A stretch of DNA of 4,136 nt, from the IMG/VR virus record IMGVR_UViG_2706794683_000007, one strand, 5' to 3'. Both the position numbers and the translations under genes were made by a program. How positions within the stretch are numbered: the stretch's first letter is position 1; every line of letters starts with the position of its first letter. Source of the stretch: a virus (lineage: Duplodnaviria > Heunggongvirae > Uroviricota > Caudoviricetes). The notes under the pieces are model-generated. The model saw only the letters and a list, made by a program, of their open reading frames with translations, was not told the origin of the DNA and ran no database searches. Below are positions 52 through 4,136 of this stretch, in pieces.

Positions 52-447
52 TTAAAAAAAGAACAAATGGTAGTGTCCGCTATTGCCAGTACACCTCAAT
101 TGCTCTGCGGCTTCGCTCAGAGCTGGCGTATGTTCCCGGCCTACTGATTCACACAGGTAATCAACGAAACCGGACACCAGTTTTCGTTCGCGAGGCGTGA
201 TCGCCCCACCGACCGGAGTCCAGTAATCGAAACCCAGTTGCAGGAGTTTGAAAAAACGCTTGTGGAATGCGTAGTTACACACACGCTTAAAGTCTGCGTG
301 TATCCACTCACCTATTTTGATTTGATGCAGAAAATCGCAACTCTCCGGCGTCGCCGGGAGAAGTAATCCGGAAGAGGTTTGTTTGACCAGTTGTATATGT
401 GCCATCGGCTTTCTCCGGTGGCACGGTGTTACACAGCAGGAGTTCAA
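52..447 (-). CDS. Hypothetical phage protein (117-131 aa); family not recognised
   Basis: Open minus-strand frame with TAA stop at 52-54. The ATG at 447-445 overlaps the upstream stop (ATGA, 444-447). An internal ATG at 405-403 is preceded by GGAGAAAGCCG, a plausible RBS, so the true start may be 405 (product MAHIQLVKQ...). Same orientation and tight spacing with the upstream gene. Confidence 0.6.
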   Translation of the reverse strand: MNSCCVTPCHRRKPMAHIQLVKQTSSGLLLPATPESCDFLHQIKIGEWIHADFKRVCNYAFHKRFFKLLQLGFDYWTPVGGAITPRERKLVSGFVDYLCESVGREHTPALSEAAEQLRCTGNSGHYHLFFF

Positions 448-731
448 TCCTGCTCAAGATTGTAGATGAGTTTATTCTTCAGCAAAAGCAGAAAACCAGC
501 CTTAAAACCAATCTCTTTCAAAACCCGTAATGATGTGACAAATTCGTCCTCACGCAAAATAAAACCGTCCGTCAGAAGTCCATTACAAAAATAAAATAAC
601 ACAGCACCGCTCTTCCTTTGTTGAGATTGCAAACATCTAATGCGGCAATGGCTGACAATCGCTCCATTCTCAACGCGCACAGCATAGAGGCCATTTTCAC
701 TAAAAATTTCACGCAATTCTTCGATTTTCAT
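444..731 (-). CDS. Hypothetical protein (95 aa); family not recognised
   Basis: ATG at 731-729 preceded by GGAAGGATTCTGAAG (SD-like GGAAGGA, about 8 nt spacing). Stop overlaps the start of the next gene (ATGA). Confidence 0.6.
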   Translation of the reverse strand: MKIEELREIFSENGLYAVRVENGAIVSHCRIRCLQSQQRKSGAVLFYFCNGLLTDGFILREDEFVTSLRVLKEIGFKAGFLLLLKNKLIYNLEQD

Positions 732-812
732 CTTCAGAATCCTTCCAGATAAATAGCTCTCCCCTGTTCGGGGTCCATCCCTCTTCTCCCTGCGCGCTAC
801 TTAAGTGAGTCG

Positions 813-840
813 ATTCTATCTGCGAAGGTGCGCGAATCAA
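813..840 (-). promoter_or_regulatory. Candidate sigma70 promoter for the two-gene operon starting at 731
   Basis: Minus strand reads TTGATT (plus 840-835), a 16 nt spacer, then TAGAAT (plus 818-813). It lies just downstream of the hok terminator and about 80 nt upstream of the ATG at 731. Hexamer match only. Confidence 0.3.
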
Positions 841-849
841 ATTCACCGG

Positions 850-905
850 AAATAAACAACAAAAAACCCGCCGAAACGCTGAGAGATCACAGCGATGGGC
901 GGGTT
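850..905 (-). terminator. Rho-independent terminator at the 3' end of the hok transcript
   Basis: Minus-strand RNA: AACCCGCC (rc of 898-905) pairs with GGCGGGUU (rc of 865-872), an 8 bp GC-rich stem. The loop holds an inner 5 bp stem (877-881 / 890-894). The stem is followed directly by a U-rich tract UUUUGUUGUUUAUUU (rc of 850-864). Confidence 0.6.
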
Positions 906-909
906 AAGT

Positions 910-972
910 GCGGGTGCGTTGAGGATGCCTGACACATCAGAGGTGGGCGGGGATGGGATCAGCTCCCCGCCC
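910..972 (-). promoter_or_regulatory. hok mRNA 3' UTR elements: fbi-like sequence complementary to the mRNA 5' end, plus a GC hairpin
   Basis: Plus 910-924 (GCGGGTGCGTTGAGG) is the inverted complement of plus 1295-1308 (CCTCAAGCACCCGC): 8 + 6 bp with a 1 nt bulge, about 385 nt apart, both inside the predicted hok transcript. A perfect 8 bp inverted repeat GGGCGGGG (945-952) / CCCCGCCC (965-972) sits just 3' of the hok stop. Both resemble the fold-back-inhibition architecture of plasmid R1 hok mRNA. Confidence 0.45.
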
Positions 973-980
973 GGTCACTC

Positions 981-1136
981 TTACTTCCTGGATTCGTAGT
1001 CTACGAAGACAGCGACCTCCGTCTGGCCGGTTCGGATTCGTACCTCACAGAGGTCTTTCCTCGTTACCAGTGCCGTCACTATGACGGTTAAACAGATGAC
1101 GATCAGGGCGATTAACATCGCCTTTTGCTGCTTCAT
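981..1136 (-). CDS. hok: Hok/Gef-family type I toxin (51 aa small membrane protein)
   Basis: Translation is MKQQKAMLIALIVICLTVIVTALVTRKDLCEVRIRTGQTEVAVFVDYESRK: a hydrophobic transmembrane segment followed by the conserved C-x(n)-C periplasmic tail typical of Hok/Gef/RelF. From memory it closely resembles E. coli HokD. AAGGAG lies 9 nt upstream of the ATG at 1136-1134. The ORF track extends the same frame to an ATG at 1193 (70 aa), which I read as leader sequence. Confidence 0.85.
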   Translation of the reverse strand: MKQQKAMLIALIVICLTVIVTALVTRKDLCEVRIRTGQTEVAVFVDYESRK

Positions 1137-1149
1137 AGCCTGCTTCTCC

Positions 1150-1255
1150 TTGCCTTTCGGCATGTAAGAGGCTAACCTACATGTGCAAAGCATGAAATTG
1201 GCCTCAGATTAATGTTAAGCGTCTTGCCGGACGCGTAATGTTAACTGGGGCTTTT
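1150..1255 (+). ncRNA. sok: Putative Sok-like antisense RNA region (position inferred, boundaries uncertain)
   Basis: By analogy with hok/sok loci, a short antisense RNA should be encoded opposite the hok leader. A weak plus-strand promoter candidate is TTGCCT (1150-1155), 17 nt spacer, TAACCT (1173-1178). A transcript from about 1185 would be antisense to the upstream in-frame ATG at 1193 and its SD-like GAGG. No clean terminator was found. Confidence 0.25.
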
Positions 1256-1294
1256 CTCTATCTGCCTTTTGGTGTTCATGCCTGAAGCAGATAG

Positions 1295-1342
1295 CCTCAA
1301 GCACCCGCAGTCATTCTACTTACCTCGCCAATATGAAATCAA
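1295..1342 (-). promoter_or_regulatory. hok promoter and mRNA 5' end (tac-like element)
   Basis: Minus strand reads TTGATT (plus 1342-1337), 18 nt spacer, TAGAAT (plus 1318-1313), giving a predicted start near 1306-1309. The predicted 5' end GCGGGUGCUUGAGGCU resembles the start of R1 hok mRNA as I recall it, and is complementary to the 3' element at 910-924. Confidence 0.45.
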
Positions 1343-1363
1343 TCAGAAAGGTGCCCCATAAAA

Positions 1364-2050
1364 TCACTCCTTCTCTTCTTTACCGTAGTGGAGTTGACCA
1401 ATTTTGATAAGAGGGCGTCCCTGAGATTTGCGGTGTAGATTGGTATCGCGCAGAGAATACACACAGCCACAATATTCCTGCTGATAGAATTTTTCGCGCT
1501 TGCTGATTTCAATCATACGGGACGAGCCGCCCTGCTTGCGCCAGTTATAATCCCAGTACACCATGCCCGGATAATGCGCGACGGCTCGCCGCCCACAGTC
1601 GTTAACCTGCTGCATATTTTTCCAGCGTGAAATGCCCAGTGAACTGCTGATCACACTGAAACCATTTTCAGCGGCGTACAGCGCTGTCCGCTCAAAACGC
1701 ATGTCAAAACACATGGTGCAACGGATCCCTCGTTCGGGCTCCCATTCCATTCCTTTGGCTCGTTCAAACCAGTTGTCTGTGTCGTAATCAGCATCAATAA
1801 ACGGCACGCCGTGTTGTTCAGCAAAGCGAATATTCTCATCCTTACGAATTAAATACTCTTTCTGAGGATGAATGTTCGGGTTGTAGAAAAAGATGGTGTA
1901 GTCGATTCCCGAGGCCTGAAGCGCCTCCATCACCTCACCGGAACATGGAGCACAGCAAGAGTGCAGTAGTAGTTTGTTTGCCCCGTTTGGGAGCTCCAAT
2001 TTGGGCCGTTTGAAATCAGCAACTGTCATAAATATGTTTATTGGGGTCAT
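1364..2050 (-). CDS. queH: QueH-like (DUF208) putative epoxyqueuosine reductase / Fe-S enzyme homolog
   Basis: 228 aa ORF with [11 protein letters not shown] near the N-terminus (Cys32/33/36), CTMC (Cys111/114) and EYCGCVYS near the C-terminus (Cys194/196), which match my recollection of DUF208/QueH conserved cysteine motifs. There is no obvious SD before either the ATG at 2050 or the in-frame ATG at 2029, so the start is uncertain. Family call is from recalled motifs only. Confidence 0.7.
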
Positions 2051-2197
2051 AAAAATATCAAAGAGTGTAGCATTAGAACGGGGCTATCGGAAACAGATGT
2101 GTGACTGCTCCCCGCCCTTTCGGGTGGTCTCCTGATGATTTGAGGGTGCAGAAATCCCTCCGGTTAAGGATTAAATTTTTAACAGTGCTAAATTTAA

Positions 2198-2554
2198 TTA
2201 TTCAGTTCTGGATTTTGTCGCCCTGCGTATCCGCGCTTTCGCGTTACGCTCAATCTGTATCAGCTTTTCTATATTTCTCCGCCTTTCCTGTTCCTCCTGG
2301 CGCAATAGCCTTACATCATCTGCCAGTCTGGTTTCTCTTTTTGCCACAGAGAGCATCCAGTCAAACGGCTCCACAACCGCACCGCAGATTTTACAGCGGA
2401 CCTGACGCTCTTTTTCGTCAACCCGTACAGAGGCGTGATGGCAATATGGTCTTTCCGATGGCTCATAAAGAAAATTAACCTGATTACGAGGGTCATCCTC
2501 TTTTACCGGAAATAAAACGATATTGCTTAACTCATCTTCTGGTTTTATTTCCAT
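2198..2554 (-). CDS. Hypothetical small Zn-ribbon-like protein with basic coiled-coil C-terminus (118 aa)
   Basis: ATG at 2554-2552 is preceded by AAGGAGAGGAGC, a strong SD. Product starts MEIKPEDEL and contains C-H-H ... C-x-x-C (YCHHASVRVDEKERQVRCKICG) followed by an Arg/Glu-rich helical tail. The ORF track's longer form starts at 2611, where ATG abuts the upstream TGA (TGAATG); either start is possible. Confidence 0.7.
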   Translation of the reverse strand: MEIKPEDELSNIVLFPVKEDDPRNQVNFLYEPSERPYCHHASVRVDEKERQVRCKICGAVVEPFDWMLSVAKRETRLADDVRLLRQEEQERRRNIEKLIQIERNAKARIRRATKSRTE

Positions 2555-2611
2555 GCTCCTCTCCTTTGATGCGAATGCCAGCGGTAATTGAAGCCTGATA
2601 GCTAATTTCAT

Positions 2612-3034
2612 TCACAGTATCGCCTCCTGAAAATTACCCTGATAGAAAGCCAGTACACGCTGCATAGCTTCGCTCTTCCGGCACTCGCGACAGATTATAT
2701 TCAGGCGCCTGTCGTAGCGGCGTATTTCTCCGTCAGGTAATGACCAGATAAGGTCCGGATCAACAACAACCGGTTTCCTCACCTTTACTCTCGAGAGTTT
2801 TTTGCGGGCGCTTTGCCAGTCCTTGCGAGCCTGTTCAGACGGGAATAAGCCGTAGCCAGAATTATATACATCACCACTTGCGACCAGTTCTATGCATAAG
2901 CGACCGACAGACGCACGACTGATACCTGTTTCATCTGACAACTGCCGAATCGTGACCCGACCGTCCTGATGCACGAGTTCCACAATTCGCGTCTTCAGTT
3001 CTTCCCGCTGTTCGGGAGTAAAAGGTTTCGCCAT
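2612..3034 (-). CDS. Hypothetical phage protein with N-terminal helix-turn-helix / winged-helix-like segment (140 aa)
   Basis: ATG at 3034-3032 is preceded by CAGGAGGATTT (strong SD), 14 nt after the DnaC-like stop. The segment VTIRQLSDETGISRASVGRLCIELVASG looks like an HTH. The C-terminal half is basic and carries a CRECRK motif. Confidence 0.75.
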   Translation of the reverse strand: MAKPFTPEQREELKTRIVELVHQDGRVTIRQLSDETGISRASVGRLCIELVASGDVYNSGYGLFPSEQARKDWQSARKKLSRVKVRKPVVVDPDLIWSLPDGEIRRYDRRLNIICRECRKSEAMQRVLAFYQGNFQEAIL

Positions 3035-3048
3035 AAATCCTCCTGAAA

Positions 3049-3666
3049 CTACTTAACAACCCTCGAATGGCTAACATTCGGACGCCAGCTCTCCCAGTTA
3101 AAATTCACCCAGCGNNNNNNNNNNNNNNNNNNNNNNNNNNNNNNNNNNNNNNNNNNNNNNNNNNNNNNNNNNNNNNNNNNNNNNNNNNNNNNNNNNNNNN
3201 NNNNNNNGATAGCTGCCGCTAAGTGATTCTTCCCGGTACCAGGTTTTCCGCTGAACGCAAAATTTGTACACCCGGTCATCAGTTCATCGGCGATGGATTT
3301 CGCCTGGCTTAACGCGTATCGCTGGCCGTCGTTCTGCACCTGGTAATTCGCAAACGAGCATTTACGGTGCAACGGCTGGATGCCTGAGCGATTCAGAATT
3401 TTTTCCACCCGCAACTGGCGNNNNNNNNNNNNNNNNNNNNNNNNNNNNNNNNNNNNNNNNNNNNNNNNNNNNNNNNNNNNNNNNNNNNNNNNNNNNNNNN
3501 NNNATTCATTGGCGATGCTGTGTCGAATCACCTGCTCAGGTGTAAAACCCTGCTGACGGAATTTTTCCAGTTCCCGTATCGCCCCGTTAGCGCCCTGCTC
3601 CGTTCGAATCGGTTTTCGCAATGCCTGTCTGAACCGGACCCACTCATGCCAGAGTGTTTCCGGCAA
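3049..3666 (-). CDS. DnaC-like (AAA+, IstB/DnaC family) helicase loader, phage-type; interrupted by two N runs, 5' boundary unresolved
   Basis: Walker A FAFSGKPGTGKNHLAAAI is encoded at about 3208-3261. NRSGIQPLH...CSFANY and the C-terminal WVNFNW both parallel E. coli DnaC as I recall it (NRSGIRPLH, GKPGTGKNHLAAAI, WVIFNW). The ORF-track start at 3666 is a TTG, and the frame is open upstream to a stop at 3733-3735, so the 5' part may belong to the upstream replication gene. N runs at 3115-3207 and 3421-3503 are translated as X. Confidence 0.75.
   Translation of the reverse strand: MPETLWHEWVRFRQALRKPIRTEQGANGAIRELEKFRQQGFTPEQVIRHSIANEXXXXXXXXXXXXXXXXXXXXXXXXXXXXRQLRVEKILNRSGIQPLHRKCSFANYQVQNDGQRYALSQAKSIADELMTGCTNFAFSGKPGTGKNHLAAAIXXXXXXXXXXXXXXXXXXXXXXXXXXXXXXXRWVNFNWESWRPNVSHSRVVK
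3115..3207. other. Run of 93 N (unresolved or masked bases) inside the DnaC-like ORF
   Basis: Directly visible. It replaces the region where Walker B, sensor and arginine-finger motifs would be expected. Confidence 0.99.
3421..3503. other. Run of 83 N (unresolved or masked bases)
   Basis: Directly visible. It lies at the probable junction between the replication-initiator C-terminal region and the DnaC-like N-terminus. Confidence 0.99.
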
Positions 3667-3745
3667 CCAATCGGGCAGCTCAATAGCCTCCGGCTCGAAT
3701 TTTTTAGACGCTCGTTTTTGGCGAGGGGGAGATCAGTATTTAGAT

Positions 3746-3765
3746 CTTCCTCTTCCTCTTCCTCT
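3746..3765. repeat. Hexanucleotide tandem repeat (CTTCCT)x3, encoding poly-Glu on the minus strand
   Basis: Plus 3746-3765 is cttcct cttcct cttcct ct; on the minus strand this is GAG GAA x3 (EEEEEE) in the open linker frame. Confidence 0.8.
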
Positions 3766-3766
3766 G

Positions 3767-3857
3767 GTAACGCTTTTTGATCCGTTTGTGTAACGCTGGC
3801 AGCGTTACCTTTTCGTTTCAGTTCGCGTATTTTTGTTACTCGCTCGTTTGTAACCGC
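3767..3857. repeat. Iteron-like repeat cluster and 19 bp palindrome; candidate phage replication origin inside the initiator gene
   Basis: CGTTTG/CGTTTC occurs at 3783, 3814 and 3845, exactly 31 bp apart. Associated GTAAC(C)GC / GCGTTAC motifs occur at 3767, 3790, 3802, 3835 and 3850. A 9+1+9 palindrome GTAACGCTGGCAGCGTTAC spans 3790-3808. Three GATC sites fall within 3731-3782. Confidence 0.25.
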
Positions 3858-4136
3858 CCGTTTTTTTTAGAGCTTTTTCCGTTATGACGTTCAAAGTTAG
3901 GTAGAGAAAGCCCTCCGTCATTTTCGACCAGCCATCCAACCTGAATTAACGCATCAGCAAAACCAGACATAAAAGTGATGCGATCTATTGCACTTTTTGT
4001 AACGCCGCGAGCGTTACAATCTGCATTACCGTCTATCATTTGTTGATCCGCCCATGCCCAGAAGCGAATAACCTGAGGTAGCCTGAGTTTAACGGACACT
4101 CCTTCCTGAAATAGAATGGCATCAGAAGGAGCTAAT
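3836..4136 (-). CDS. Phage replication-initiation protein, N-terminal domain (possibly DUF1376/YdaU-like); 5' partial
   Basis: ORF 3836-4099 (GTG at 4099) translates to MSVKLRLPQVIRFWAWADQQMIDG...GWLVENDGGLSLPNFERHNGKSSKKNGRLQTSE. The frame stays open upstream to the window edge (4136), and the SD-like AGGAAGGA abuts the GTG with no spacing, so the true start is probably outside the window. It sits directly upstream of a DnaC-like gene, as in Rac-type replication modules. Confidence 0.55.
   Translation of the reverse strand, partial: LAPSDAILFQEGVSVKLRLPQVIRFWAWADQQMIDGNADCNARGVTKSAIDRITFMSGFADALIQVGWLVENDGGLSLPNFERHNGKSSKKNGRLQTSE

Follow-up and report, generated by a model that had tools for sequence, protein, structure and literature searches.

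Genes and regulatory elements of the locus

Judging from the sequence, positions 861-1342 of the window (the whole stretch of 4,136 nt that was analysed) very probably harbour a full hok/mok/sok cassette (type I toxin-antitoxin) with hok and mok on the minus strand, a member of the hokW/hokD lineage carried by prophages (Table 1). The Rfam sok model RF01794 matched 1306-1131 on the strand of the hok mRNA over its full length (model positions 1-157 of 157), with 117 bits (gathering score 59; E = 3.6e-27). An end-to-end alignment was also obtained with hokW/mokW/sokW as annotated in phage 933W, the two loci being colinear from the −10 element to fbi.

The 51-aa reading frame which the earlier note assigned to the Hok/Gef family indeed belongs there. 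It scored 81.1 bits with Pfam HOK_GEF (cut-off 22; 42 of 42 profile positions) and 112 bits with phrog_251 ('MokW-like host killing'), and the alignment shows both cysteines and the TRK motif to be conserved. The protein differs from HokW in a single residue (R50 for E50). It forms part of the longer mok frame, whose 70-aa product is 96% identical to MokW (three differences in all). The strong Shine-Dalgarno (SD) sequence claimed for hok is likewise present. Two NCBIfam models stayed below their curated cut-offs, the Hok subfamily NF007279 (55 bits, cut-off 73) and the HokA equivalog NF007290 (38.9 bits, cut-off 89). Both are centred on other Hok branches; RefSeq nonetheless names the identical protein HokD (WP_014532198.1), and the identical DNA is annotated hokD there.

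Table 1 Features of the hok/mok/sok locus, with positions in the window
Feature	Position	Strand	Basis or remark
hok/mok promoter-like site: −35 TTGATT (1342-1337), 18-nt spacer, −10 TAGAAT (1318-1313)	1313-1342	−	promoter scan
Predicted full-length hok mRNA, 446 nt	861-1306	−	5' end by homology, 3' end from the terminator
tac element, 5' GGGUGCUUGAGG	1295-1306	−	pairs with 924-912 in the MFE fold; conserved in 28 loci
Partner of tac in the predicted local 'metastable' 5' hairpin (1304-1294 with 1288-1278)	1278-1288	−	MFE folds of 5' and truncated RNAs
Putative ucb (anti-SD box), AAGCCCC	1247-1253	−	homology to the R1 model described in PMC9841398
mok Shine-Dalgarno sequence GAGG, 8 nt before the mok AUG	1202-1205	−	sequence; paired in the full-length MFE fold
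mok reading frame, 70 codons, in frame and co-terminal with hok	981-1193	−	ORF list; layout as in mokW (AF125520)
hok Shine-Dalgarno sequence AAGGAG (1151-1146), 9 nt before the AUG at 1136	1146-1151	−	sequence; invariant alignment block
hok toxin gene, 51 aa	981-1136	−	Pfam HOK_GEF, phrog_251, comparison with HokW
GC-rich hairpin just 3' of the hok stop codon	945-972	−	MFE fold, alignment; part of the consensus structure
3' arm of a second predicted long-range helix, partner the mok start-codon region 1193-1181	925-937	−	MFE fold of the window sequence
fbi element, CCUCAACGCACCC	912-924	−	pairs with tac; unique in the window; compensatory change across loci
Intrinsic terminator: hairpin 905-865 with internal loops, then U6 (866-861)	861-905	−	folds, alignment
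Sok promoter: −35 TTGCCT (1150-1155), 17-nt spacer, −10 TAACCT (1173-1178)	1150-1178	+	hexamers identical to those of 933W
Predicted Sok antisense RNA, about 71 nt	1185-1255	+	positional homologue of the sokW misc_RNA (AF125520)

Promoter, transcript and terminator

A σ70-like promoter had been proposed at 1313-1342, and the promoter scan did find a candidate site there, with 9 of 12 consensus matches. Since the scan returned 2 sites in the 800-base region and 0.8 were expected from shuffled sequences, this hit is weak on its own. The −10 position is conserved in the relatives, as a −10-like hexamer lies 6-7 nt upstream of the conserved 5' sequence GGGYGCUUGAG in 26 of 29 related loci. A 10-bp deletion upstream of the −10 element sets the −35 element apart from that of 933W and HannyBb; it removes the ancestral −35 position and leaves TTGATT at the 18-nt spacing. 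Transcription probably starts at 1306, where the Rfam model begins and to which homology with R1 also points.

At the other end of the transcript, the intrinsic terminator expected within 850-905 was borne out by folding: the segment 912-858 gave the hairpin listed in Table 1 with −24.7 kcal/mol (z = −5.65). A simple consensus terminator scan reported no terminator at 850-905, because the stem has internal loops and exceeds the length which the scan allows. According to the alignment, the terminator exceeds those of K-12 and HannyBb by about 24 nt, and the hairpin behind the hok stop codon is 7 nt longer than in the relatives.

Predicted folding of the hok mRNA

The complementarity between 1295-1308 and 910-924, on which the fold-back argument of the earlier note rested, is real. 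In DNA it comprises 14 bp with one bulged base (C918), of which 12 bp are left in the RNA helix if transcription starts at 1306, as is probable. A single occurrence of the complement pattern CCTCAANGCACCC was found in the window (912-924, minus strand), where 0.02 would be expected by chance. When the predicted mRNA (1306-861) was folded, all 12 tac/fbi pairs were present in the minimum-free-energy (MFE) structure with probabilities of 0.97-1.00, and the fold reached −189.6 kcal/mol compared with −137.9 kcal/mol for shuffled sequences (z = −8.4).

Comparative evidence points the same way. RNAalifold predicted the 5'/3' helix independently from 28 hok loci, nine of which show a U-A to C-G exchange. 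In this alignment, 91.6% of the cells of the tac/fbi helix are paired, whereas only 33-57% are paired when the partners are slid against each other. These alignment-based pair counts were used in place of an RNAduplex scan, which was run with 95-nt upstream and 180-nt downstream segments of about 33 loci and yielded over-extended duplexes and uninformative z-scores (from about +3 to −6), with the tac/fbi core visible inside the duplexes.

These data bear on the alternative that both the reading frame and the complementarity arose in prophage DNA by chance. Small ORFs and hexamers resembling promoter elements occur often, and the promoter scan with its 2 sites against 0.8 expected would fit such a view. 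The Rfam, Pfam and PHROG matches lie far above threshold, however, chance would yield the fbi pattern only 0.02 times, the mRNA fold has a z-score of −8.4, and the 5'/3' helix is conserved with covariation across genera. The chance explanation is already refuted and retains next to no probability.

The 5' end of the mRNA can adopt other predicted structures. The local 5' hairpin is the MFE structure of the first 35-50 nt and also of the RNA truncated at 925 or 930, i.e. the 5' end is predicted to refold locally when fbi is removed. In the full-length fold the ucb box is paired to the region of the mok SD, and in the truncated RNA it is able to pair with tac; the tac/ucb stem is the MFE structure of the 70- and 110-nt 5' fragments. 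In the MFE structure of the truncated RNA the mok SD is still paired. It is opened only in the form with an enforced tac/ucb stem, which lies 5.6 kcal/mol above the MFE in the RNA truncated at 925.

The second predicted long-range helix, between 1193-1181 and 937-925, is only 62% paired when counted by alignment column, compared with 27-50% for slid controls. The label 'ucb-dcb' was considered for this helix and rejected; ucb is the anti-SD box near nucleotide 70 of the mRNA (PMC9841398).

The Sok antisense gene

At the level of sequence, the putative Sok gene possesses a promoter, a terminator hairpin and complementarity to the mok region. The predicted RNA has a single-stranded 5' tail complementary to the mok start region, followed by a long hairpin and a U tail, and its fold has −30.2 kcal/mol (z = −5.5). 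The Sok promoter fell below the threshold of the consensus scan, and its −10 hexamer TAACCT is poor by consensus. The −10 element of sokW is the site that was mutated in the 'pro-less' construct, as can be seen from primer YO-421 (PMC8621323).

Comparison with known hok/sok systems

The closest characterised relative is hokW-mokW-sokW of the Stx2 (Shiga-toxin) phages 933W and Sp5 (= VT2-Sakai; AF125520/AP000422); from the −10 element up to and including fbi, its DNA is about 92% identical. It has the same 70-codon mok in frame with a 51-aa hok and the same Sok promoter hexamers, and the hairpin of both sokW and the Sok RNA of the window is 16 nt longer than the Rfam consensus. The two loci differ in the −35 element and the 10-bp deletion described above, at several positions of the mok start region (which corresponds to the Sok 5' tail) and in the hairpin behind the stop codon, which is 7 nt longer in the window. 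The 933W sequence diverges after fbi and has no terminator hairpin at the homologous position, whereas that of the window is extended. QueH is encoded upstream in the window, L0139/L0140 in 933W; the host element of the former is an IS600-bounded remnant and that of the latter an inducible phage. Takada et al. 2021 (PMC8621323) demonstrated that hokW-sokW functions as a type I toxin-antitoxin pair. Expression of HokW led to growth arrest, which sokW counteracted, and the sokW −10 mutant lost this protection; the demonstrated role of the system is to help phage release after induction (PMC8621323).

The prototype hok/sok (parB) of plasmid R1, whose regulatory model is summarised in PMC9841398, shows the same order of elements: tac, its metastable partner, the anti-SD box (ucb), the mok SD, mok in frame with hok, the Sok promoter inside the leader, fbi and the terminator. 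The tac/fbi pairing is conserved between the two, although the helix is bulged in the window and its register is another one in R1. The two Hok proteins share only 45% identity, and the DNA is alignable in blocks only. In contrast to the prophage-borne locus, R1 hok/sok is plasmid-borne and its post-segregational killing is proven.

The hokD (relF) gene of the K-12 Qin prophage, in a similar lambdoid prophage position, is about 91% identical to the window in the hok coding region, the post-stop hairpin, fbi and the terminator, and its name is also the one that RefSeq gives to the protein of the window. The C-termini differ (FTAYEPEE in K-12 HokD, FVDYESRK in the window). The earlier note was right that K-12 hokD lacks the regulatory leader. 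Its similarity covers only 899-1150 of the window and starts about 20 nt upstream of the hok ATG; tac, ucb, the mok start and the Sok gene are missing, and relBE, with relE adjacent, lies directly upstream. The same defect, an absent mok/sokT region, would have spoken against an intact locus here, but the window contains the full leader.

The hokC (gef)/mokC/sokC chromosomal loci of Escherichia share the leader architecture and the tac/fbi pairing with the window and encode a toxin about 80% identical. They differ in a shorter Sok hairpin, a different 3' UTR and a location in the core chromosome instead of a prophage. In E. coli ECDA1023 (L019) the hokC-type copy no longer contains the fbi region, which presumably matches the IS186 insertion downstream of K-12 hokC.

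The view of an apparently intact hok/sok-type locus with fold-back 5'/3' pairing is upheld.

Proposed mode of regulation

From the R1 model and hokW-sokW we infer the following course of events. A weak constitutive promoter would give rise to a stable mRNA, about 446 nt long, whose 5' end would be kept in the local hairpin during synthesis. Once the mRNA is complete, tac at the 5' end would pair with fbi at the 3' end; in this state the upstream anti-SD box would sequester the mok ribosome-binding site, and both ribosomes and Sok would be excluded. Slow trimming from the 3' end would remove fbi, upon which the 5' end would switch to the anti-SD box and the mok site would open. As long as the short-lived Sok RNA (about 71 nt, from the opposite strand) is present, it would pair with the mok start region and the duplex would be destroyed by RNase III cleavage. 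After the decay of Sok, mok would be translated together with the coupled hok, and the 51-aa membrane peptide would damage the inner membrane.

Distribution among E. coli genomes

The earlier note implied that intact copies are rare, a suggestion which the genomes contradict: a copy covering at least 80% of 861-1318, leader included, is present in 3889 of the 5426 complete E. coli genomes (~72%). The locus is thus real but ordinary. Leader-containing loci of the hokD/hokW type are the norm in E. coli and the leaderless K-12 hokD is the exception, which corrects the perspective gained from the inactivated K-12 loci, as these are unrepresentative.

The sequence of FDAARGOS_943 is identical over 800-1400 and lacks the IS600 junctions. 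Its prophage is fuller, yet it also contains IS insertions and pseudogenes. The copies in E. coli ECMA0423 (L006) and Shigella flexneri SFBU1023 (L007) are 99.6% identical over 2.5 kb. Neither IS600 junction of the window was found in any complete E. coli genome. Visibly decaying sister copies occur in related genomes: one (L010) has no tac, another (L045) encodes a truncated Hok, and those of K-12 and L039 have no leader.

Prophage setting and possible role

The locus lies on a lambdoid prophage remnant of about 4 kb with IS600 ends on both sides, which cut an O-like gene at 4074 and a NinB-like gene at 99. The fragment also contains QueH, a Ren-like protein and replication genes. In terms of lambdoid gene order this is the early-right region: the cassette has the replication genes on one side and the nin genes on the other, and it shares their strand. 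No lysis, immunity (repressor) or structural genes were found on the prophage fragment in the window. PADLOC gave no family match for Hok or its immediate neighbours and only faint hits for the Ren-like protein; assignment to a catalogued anti-phage defence system is unsupported by this search.

Because the IS600-flanked remnant carries neither lysis nor immunity genes in the window, the cassette is most likely a selfish stabilising passenger of the addiction type here, instead of serving the phage-release function of hokW-sokW. As a lysis helper, the role shown for hokW-sokW in Sp5, it would act when prophage induction depletes Sok: Hok would be made, and membrane damage would speed the release of progeny. 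This would be exactly the role of the closest characterised homologue (PMC8621323), and the lambdoid early-right position and the strand are the same. The segment, however, ends in IS600 on both sides with its O-like and NinB-like genes cut, and induction-coupled expression is unlikely for this copy since the fragment has no repressor, lysis or structural genes. We consider such a role improbable in the window, while it may apply to the fuller prophage of FDAARGOS_943.

A more serious objection to an addiction-type role is that the locus might have all its parts and yet be functionally silent, carried neutrally on a decaying remnant as neither an active addiction nor a defence module, with a toxin that is never released, for example due to a rearranged promoter that is too weak or to a constant excess of Sok. 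The deletion that replaced the −35 element of the hok promoter, the reduction of the prophage to about 4 kb between IS600 ends and the visible decay of the sister copies all fit this possibility, and a preprint (bioRxiv 10.1101/2025.08.07.668861) recounts earlier tests in which the chromosomal hokA, hokB and hokC loci gave no post-segregational killing. On the other hand, none of the 15 mapped elements shows a disabling mutation, the toxin is one residue away from the toxic HokW, an alternative −35 hexamer stands at acceptable spacing, and the S. flexneri and E. coli ECMA0423 copies are nearly identical over 2.5 kb. Silence of the locus therefore appears rather unlikely, though clearly less so than a part in lysis, and the addiction-type passenger remains our preferred reading.

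The cassette might even be the reason why the 4-kb fragment survives between two directly oriented IS600 copies, either by addiction against IS600-mediated deletion or as composite-transposon-like cargo together with queH; we regard this extension as improbable. Through the fast divergence of the Sok 5' tail and the mok start region, each prophage copy might also acquire an antitoxin specificity of its own, and several hok/sok loci within one genome would then not cross-protect.

The cassette adds little that is new; it represents a textbook RNA-regulated toxin-antitoxin system in a good state of preservation. The RefSeq records of the identical sequence carry the hokD CDS only, without mok, Sok RNA or mRNA features, and the elements in Table 1 can be of use for their annotation. 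If this copy is active, it would represent one more self-stabilising element on a decayed prophage remnant.

Identity of the locus

The locus carries a full hok/mok/sok cassette, which belongs to the prophage-borne hokW/hokD lineage. The product of the 51-aa Hok/Gef-type frame named in the earlier note, which appears in the ORF list as part of a 70-aa frame, matched Pfam HOK_GEF with 81.1 bits (cut-off 22) over the entire 42-position profile and PHROG 251 'MokW-like host killing' with 112 bits. The Rfam sok model (RF01794, gathering score 59 bits) matched 1306-1131 (-) over 157/157 model positions (117 bits, E = 3.6e-27). Since this match has the strand of the hok mRNA and stops at the hok AUG, it certifies the Sok-encoding leader and not the antisense RNA as such. 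An annotator taking the strand of the 'sok' match (1131-1306, -) at face value would put Sok on the wrong strand. The apparently intact hok/sok-type locus of the earlier note was correctly identified, all regulatory elements of the family being in place; the system type, the nearest relative and this very allele are known from earlier publications and database records.

Features of the cassette and its upstream neighbour
Feature	Position	Strand	Basis
mok-type frame, 70 aa	1193-981	-	ORF list
Proposed toxin (Hok), 51 aa	1136-981	-	Last 51 codons of the 70-aa frame
hok promoter-like site, TTGATT-18-TAGAAT	1342..1313	-	Promoter scan
Sok promoter, TTGCCT (1150-1155), 17-nt spacer, TAACCT (1173-1178)	1150-1178	+	Both hexamers identical in 933W
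Sok RNA	1185-1255	+	Homology to the annotated 71-nt sokW
QueH (epoxyqueuosine reductase homologue)	1364-2050	-	Pfam, 220 bits; PHROG 3217, function unknown

Across 601 bases spanning the locus, two E. coli chromosomes (FDAARGOS_943 and 944) showed 100% identity; in both, the ORF is annotated as hokD (WP_014532198.1) downstream of the QueH gene in a lambdoid prophage. The nearest phage matches, 933W and VT2-Sakai among them, were 90-92% identical; the records of these two phages carry mokW (70 aa, with the stop common to hokW), hokW and the sokW antisense RNA. Compared with HokW, Hok has a single substitution (R50 for E50), and two further differences fall in the Mok leader. In a five-way alignment, 933W and phage HannyBb were colinear with the window between the −10 hexamer and the 3' element fbi, both included, and the R1-type hok/sok locus aligned in blocks with the element order kept. 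The leader is thus present, unlike in K-12 hokD, where the alignment begins only about 20 nt before the hok ATG and extends to the terminator, and where relE and relB sit immediately upstream; the statement that K-12 hokD lacks the regulatory leader was therefore right.

Transcript ends

The σ70-like promoter proposed at 1313-1342 was also reported by the promoter scan. In comparison with 933W and HannyBb, the window lacks 10 bp directly upstream of the −10 hexamer; with this deletion the ancestral −35 position (TTGGCG or TTTGCG, 17 nt) is gone, and TTGATT stands at 18 nt instead. A second promoter-like site with the same hexamers (TTGATT-16-TAGAAT, 813-840, -) closely follows the hok terminator and precedes a 95-aa PHROG 340 ORF (731-444). 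The hok transcript most likely starts at 1306, because the Rfam model begins there and because the conserved GGGYGCUUGAG is placed 6-7 nt past the −10-like hexamer in R1 and 26/29 related loci.

The intrinsic terminator suggested at 850-905 was supported by folding, which gave a hairpin with internal loops (905-865) and a run of six U behind it (866-861; −24.7 kcal/mol, z = −5.65), but a terminator scan of the hok locus reported nothing. Relative to 933W and HannyBb, the terminator loop contains an extra mini-hairpin of about 24 nt, and the post-stop hairpin exceeds theirs by 7 nt. Past fbi, the 933W sequence (L001:1440-1500) departs from that of the window, K-12 and HannyBb, and it has no terminator hairpin at the position homologous to the window terminator; the 3' end of hokW mRNA must therefore form differently.

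Pairing of the mRNA ends

The 14-nt complementarity of the earlier note holds for the DNA (1295-1308 with 910-924, one bulged base), but with a start at 1306 probably 12 pairs remain in the RNA. With the bulge position left free, the window contains a single exact complement, at 912-924 (-), where 0.02 were expected. The fold of the full-length mRNA (1306-861, 446 nt) reached −189.6 kcal/mol compared with −137.9 ± 6.2 for shuffles (z = −8.4), and the proposed pairing of the 5' element tac (1295-1306) with fbi was present in both the minimum-free-energy (MFE) and centroid structures (12/12 pairs, probabilities 0.97-1.00). A second long-range helix of the MFE structure (1193-1181 with 937-925) was not clearly conserved by column.

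A homologue scan with one genome per species yielded 47 hok loci, in Escherichia, Shigella, Kluyvera, Photorhabdus, Pantoea, Citrobacter, Erwinia and others. RNAalifold predicted the terminal helix unprompted on 28 aligned mRNAs, in which U-A was replaced by C-G in nine sequences and by U-G in one. In the 12-pair helix 91.6% of cells were paired, versus 33-57% with partners slid by 1-3 columns, and 0/500 shuffles equalled its pairing or covariation score; the paired-cell count is lowered because bulge-free loci are out of register in the distal half.

In the R1 model, tac pairs in turn with a metastable local hairpin, with fbi in full-length RNA and with the anti-SD box ucb after 3' trimming (PMC9841398). 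All three partners are available in the predicted folds. The first 35-50 nt fold as 1304-1294/1288-1278, and this hairpin is again the MFE structure of RNA cut at 925 or 930; in 70- and 110-nt fragments tac folds onto AAGCCCC (1253-1247). Enforcing the latter stem cost 16 kcal/mol in full-length RNA and 5.6 kcal/mol in RNA truncated at 925, where it left the mok SD (1205-1202) unpaired; the MFE structure of truncated RNA keeps this SD closed. The predicted switching is consistent with the R1 model.

Sok gene

At its 5' end the predicted Sok RNA carries a tail that is complementary to the mok start codon and to the adjoining upstream spacer; a long hairpin over the mok SD follows, and then CUUUU (−30.2 kcal/mol, z = −5.5). 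The Sok −10 is weak by consensus, and the consensus promoter scan did not report the Sok promoter. A mutagenic primer (YO-421) changing exactly this −10 abolished sokW expression, and protection against HokW was lost (Takada et al. 2021; PMC8621323).

Prophage context

The same-strand genes are a replication-initiator fragment, a DnaC-like ATPase (partly N-masked), a Ren-like DUF977 protein, a zinc-ribbon protein, QueH, hok, a PHROG 340 protein and a NinB/DUF1367 fragment; repressor, lysis and structural genes were absent from the fragment. Two N runs (3115-3207 and 3421-3503) fall within the DnaC/YdaV-like ATPase gene, and FDAARGOS_943 contains stretches matching both. The QueH stop lies only about 20 nt before the hok −35; a tRNA-modification enzyme is curious as lambdoid prophage cargo.

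Positions 1-98 and 4074-4136 match the two ends of IS600 (IS3 family) with 100% identity and in the same orientation, so that only 99-4073 (3975 bp) is prophage DNA. IS600 interrupts the NinB/DUF1367 and replication-initiator genes, and the window may be a whole contig breaking in IS600 repeats. Neither junction was found in the complete E. coli genomes of the collection; a segment of 99.6% identity is present in S. flexneri and E. coli ECMA0423, where IS600 lies 62 nt farther outward.

Distribution and divergence

The premise that chromosomes rarely carry intact copies describes K-12 rather than the species. The mRNA region 861-1318 was matched in 4713/5426 complete E. coli genomes (median two places per genome), and 3889/5426 had one place with at least 80% coverage, which therefore includes the leader; in K-12 derivatives only 55%, the ORF and 3' UTR, was covered. 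According to a recent survey (bioRxiv 10.1101/2025.08.07.668861), Hok homologues number 44,248 and are enriched in prophages.

Sister loci decay by several routes. Three are in the same genome as the ECMA0423 near-match or in related ones: one in ECMA0423 has lost most of tac (L010:1270-1400), L045 encodes Hok residues 5-38 only, and one in Kluyvera shows the relE-hokD junction of K-12 (L039:1270-1500). A hokC-type locus of E. coli ECDA1023 (L019) has lost fbi. Short contigs labelled Acinetobacter idrijaensis, Xanthomonas pisi and 'Candidatus Scatousia' (L018, L023, L052) carry hok 85-93% identical to the window, likely as enterobacterial DNA contaminating those assemblies.

By analogy, the cassette would work as R1 and hokW-sokW do, and this copy is likely to be active, the altered promoter being the main doubt. 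Conservation of the leader within the hokD/hokW clade is lowest at 1202-1178 (columns 121-150 of the 28-mRNA alignment), the mok start region corresponding to the Sok 5' tail, with a mean pairwise identity of 0.62-0.67 versus about 0.9 on either side. This would fit diverging antitoxin specificity among coexisting copies.
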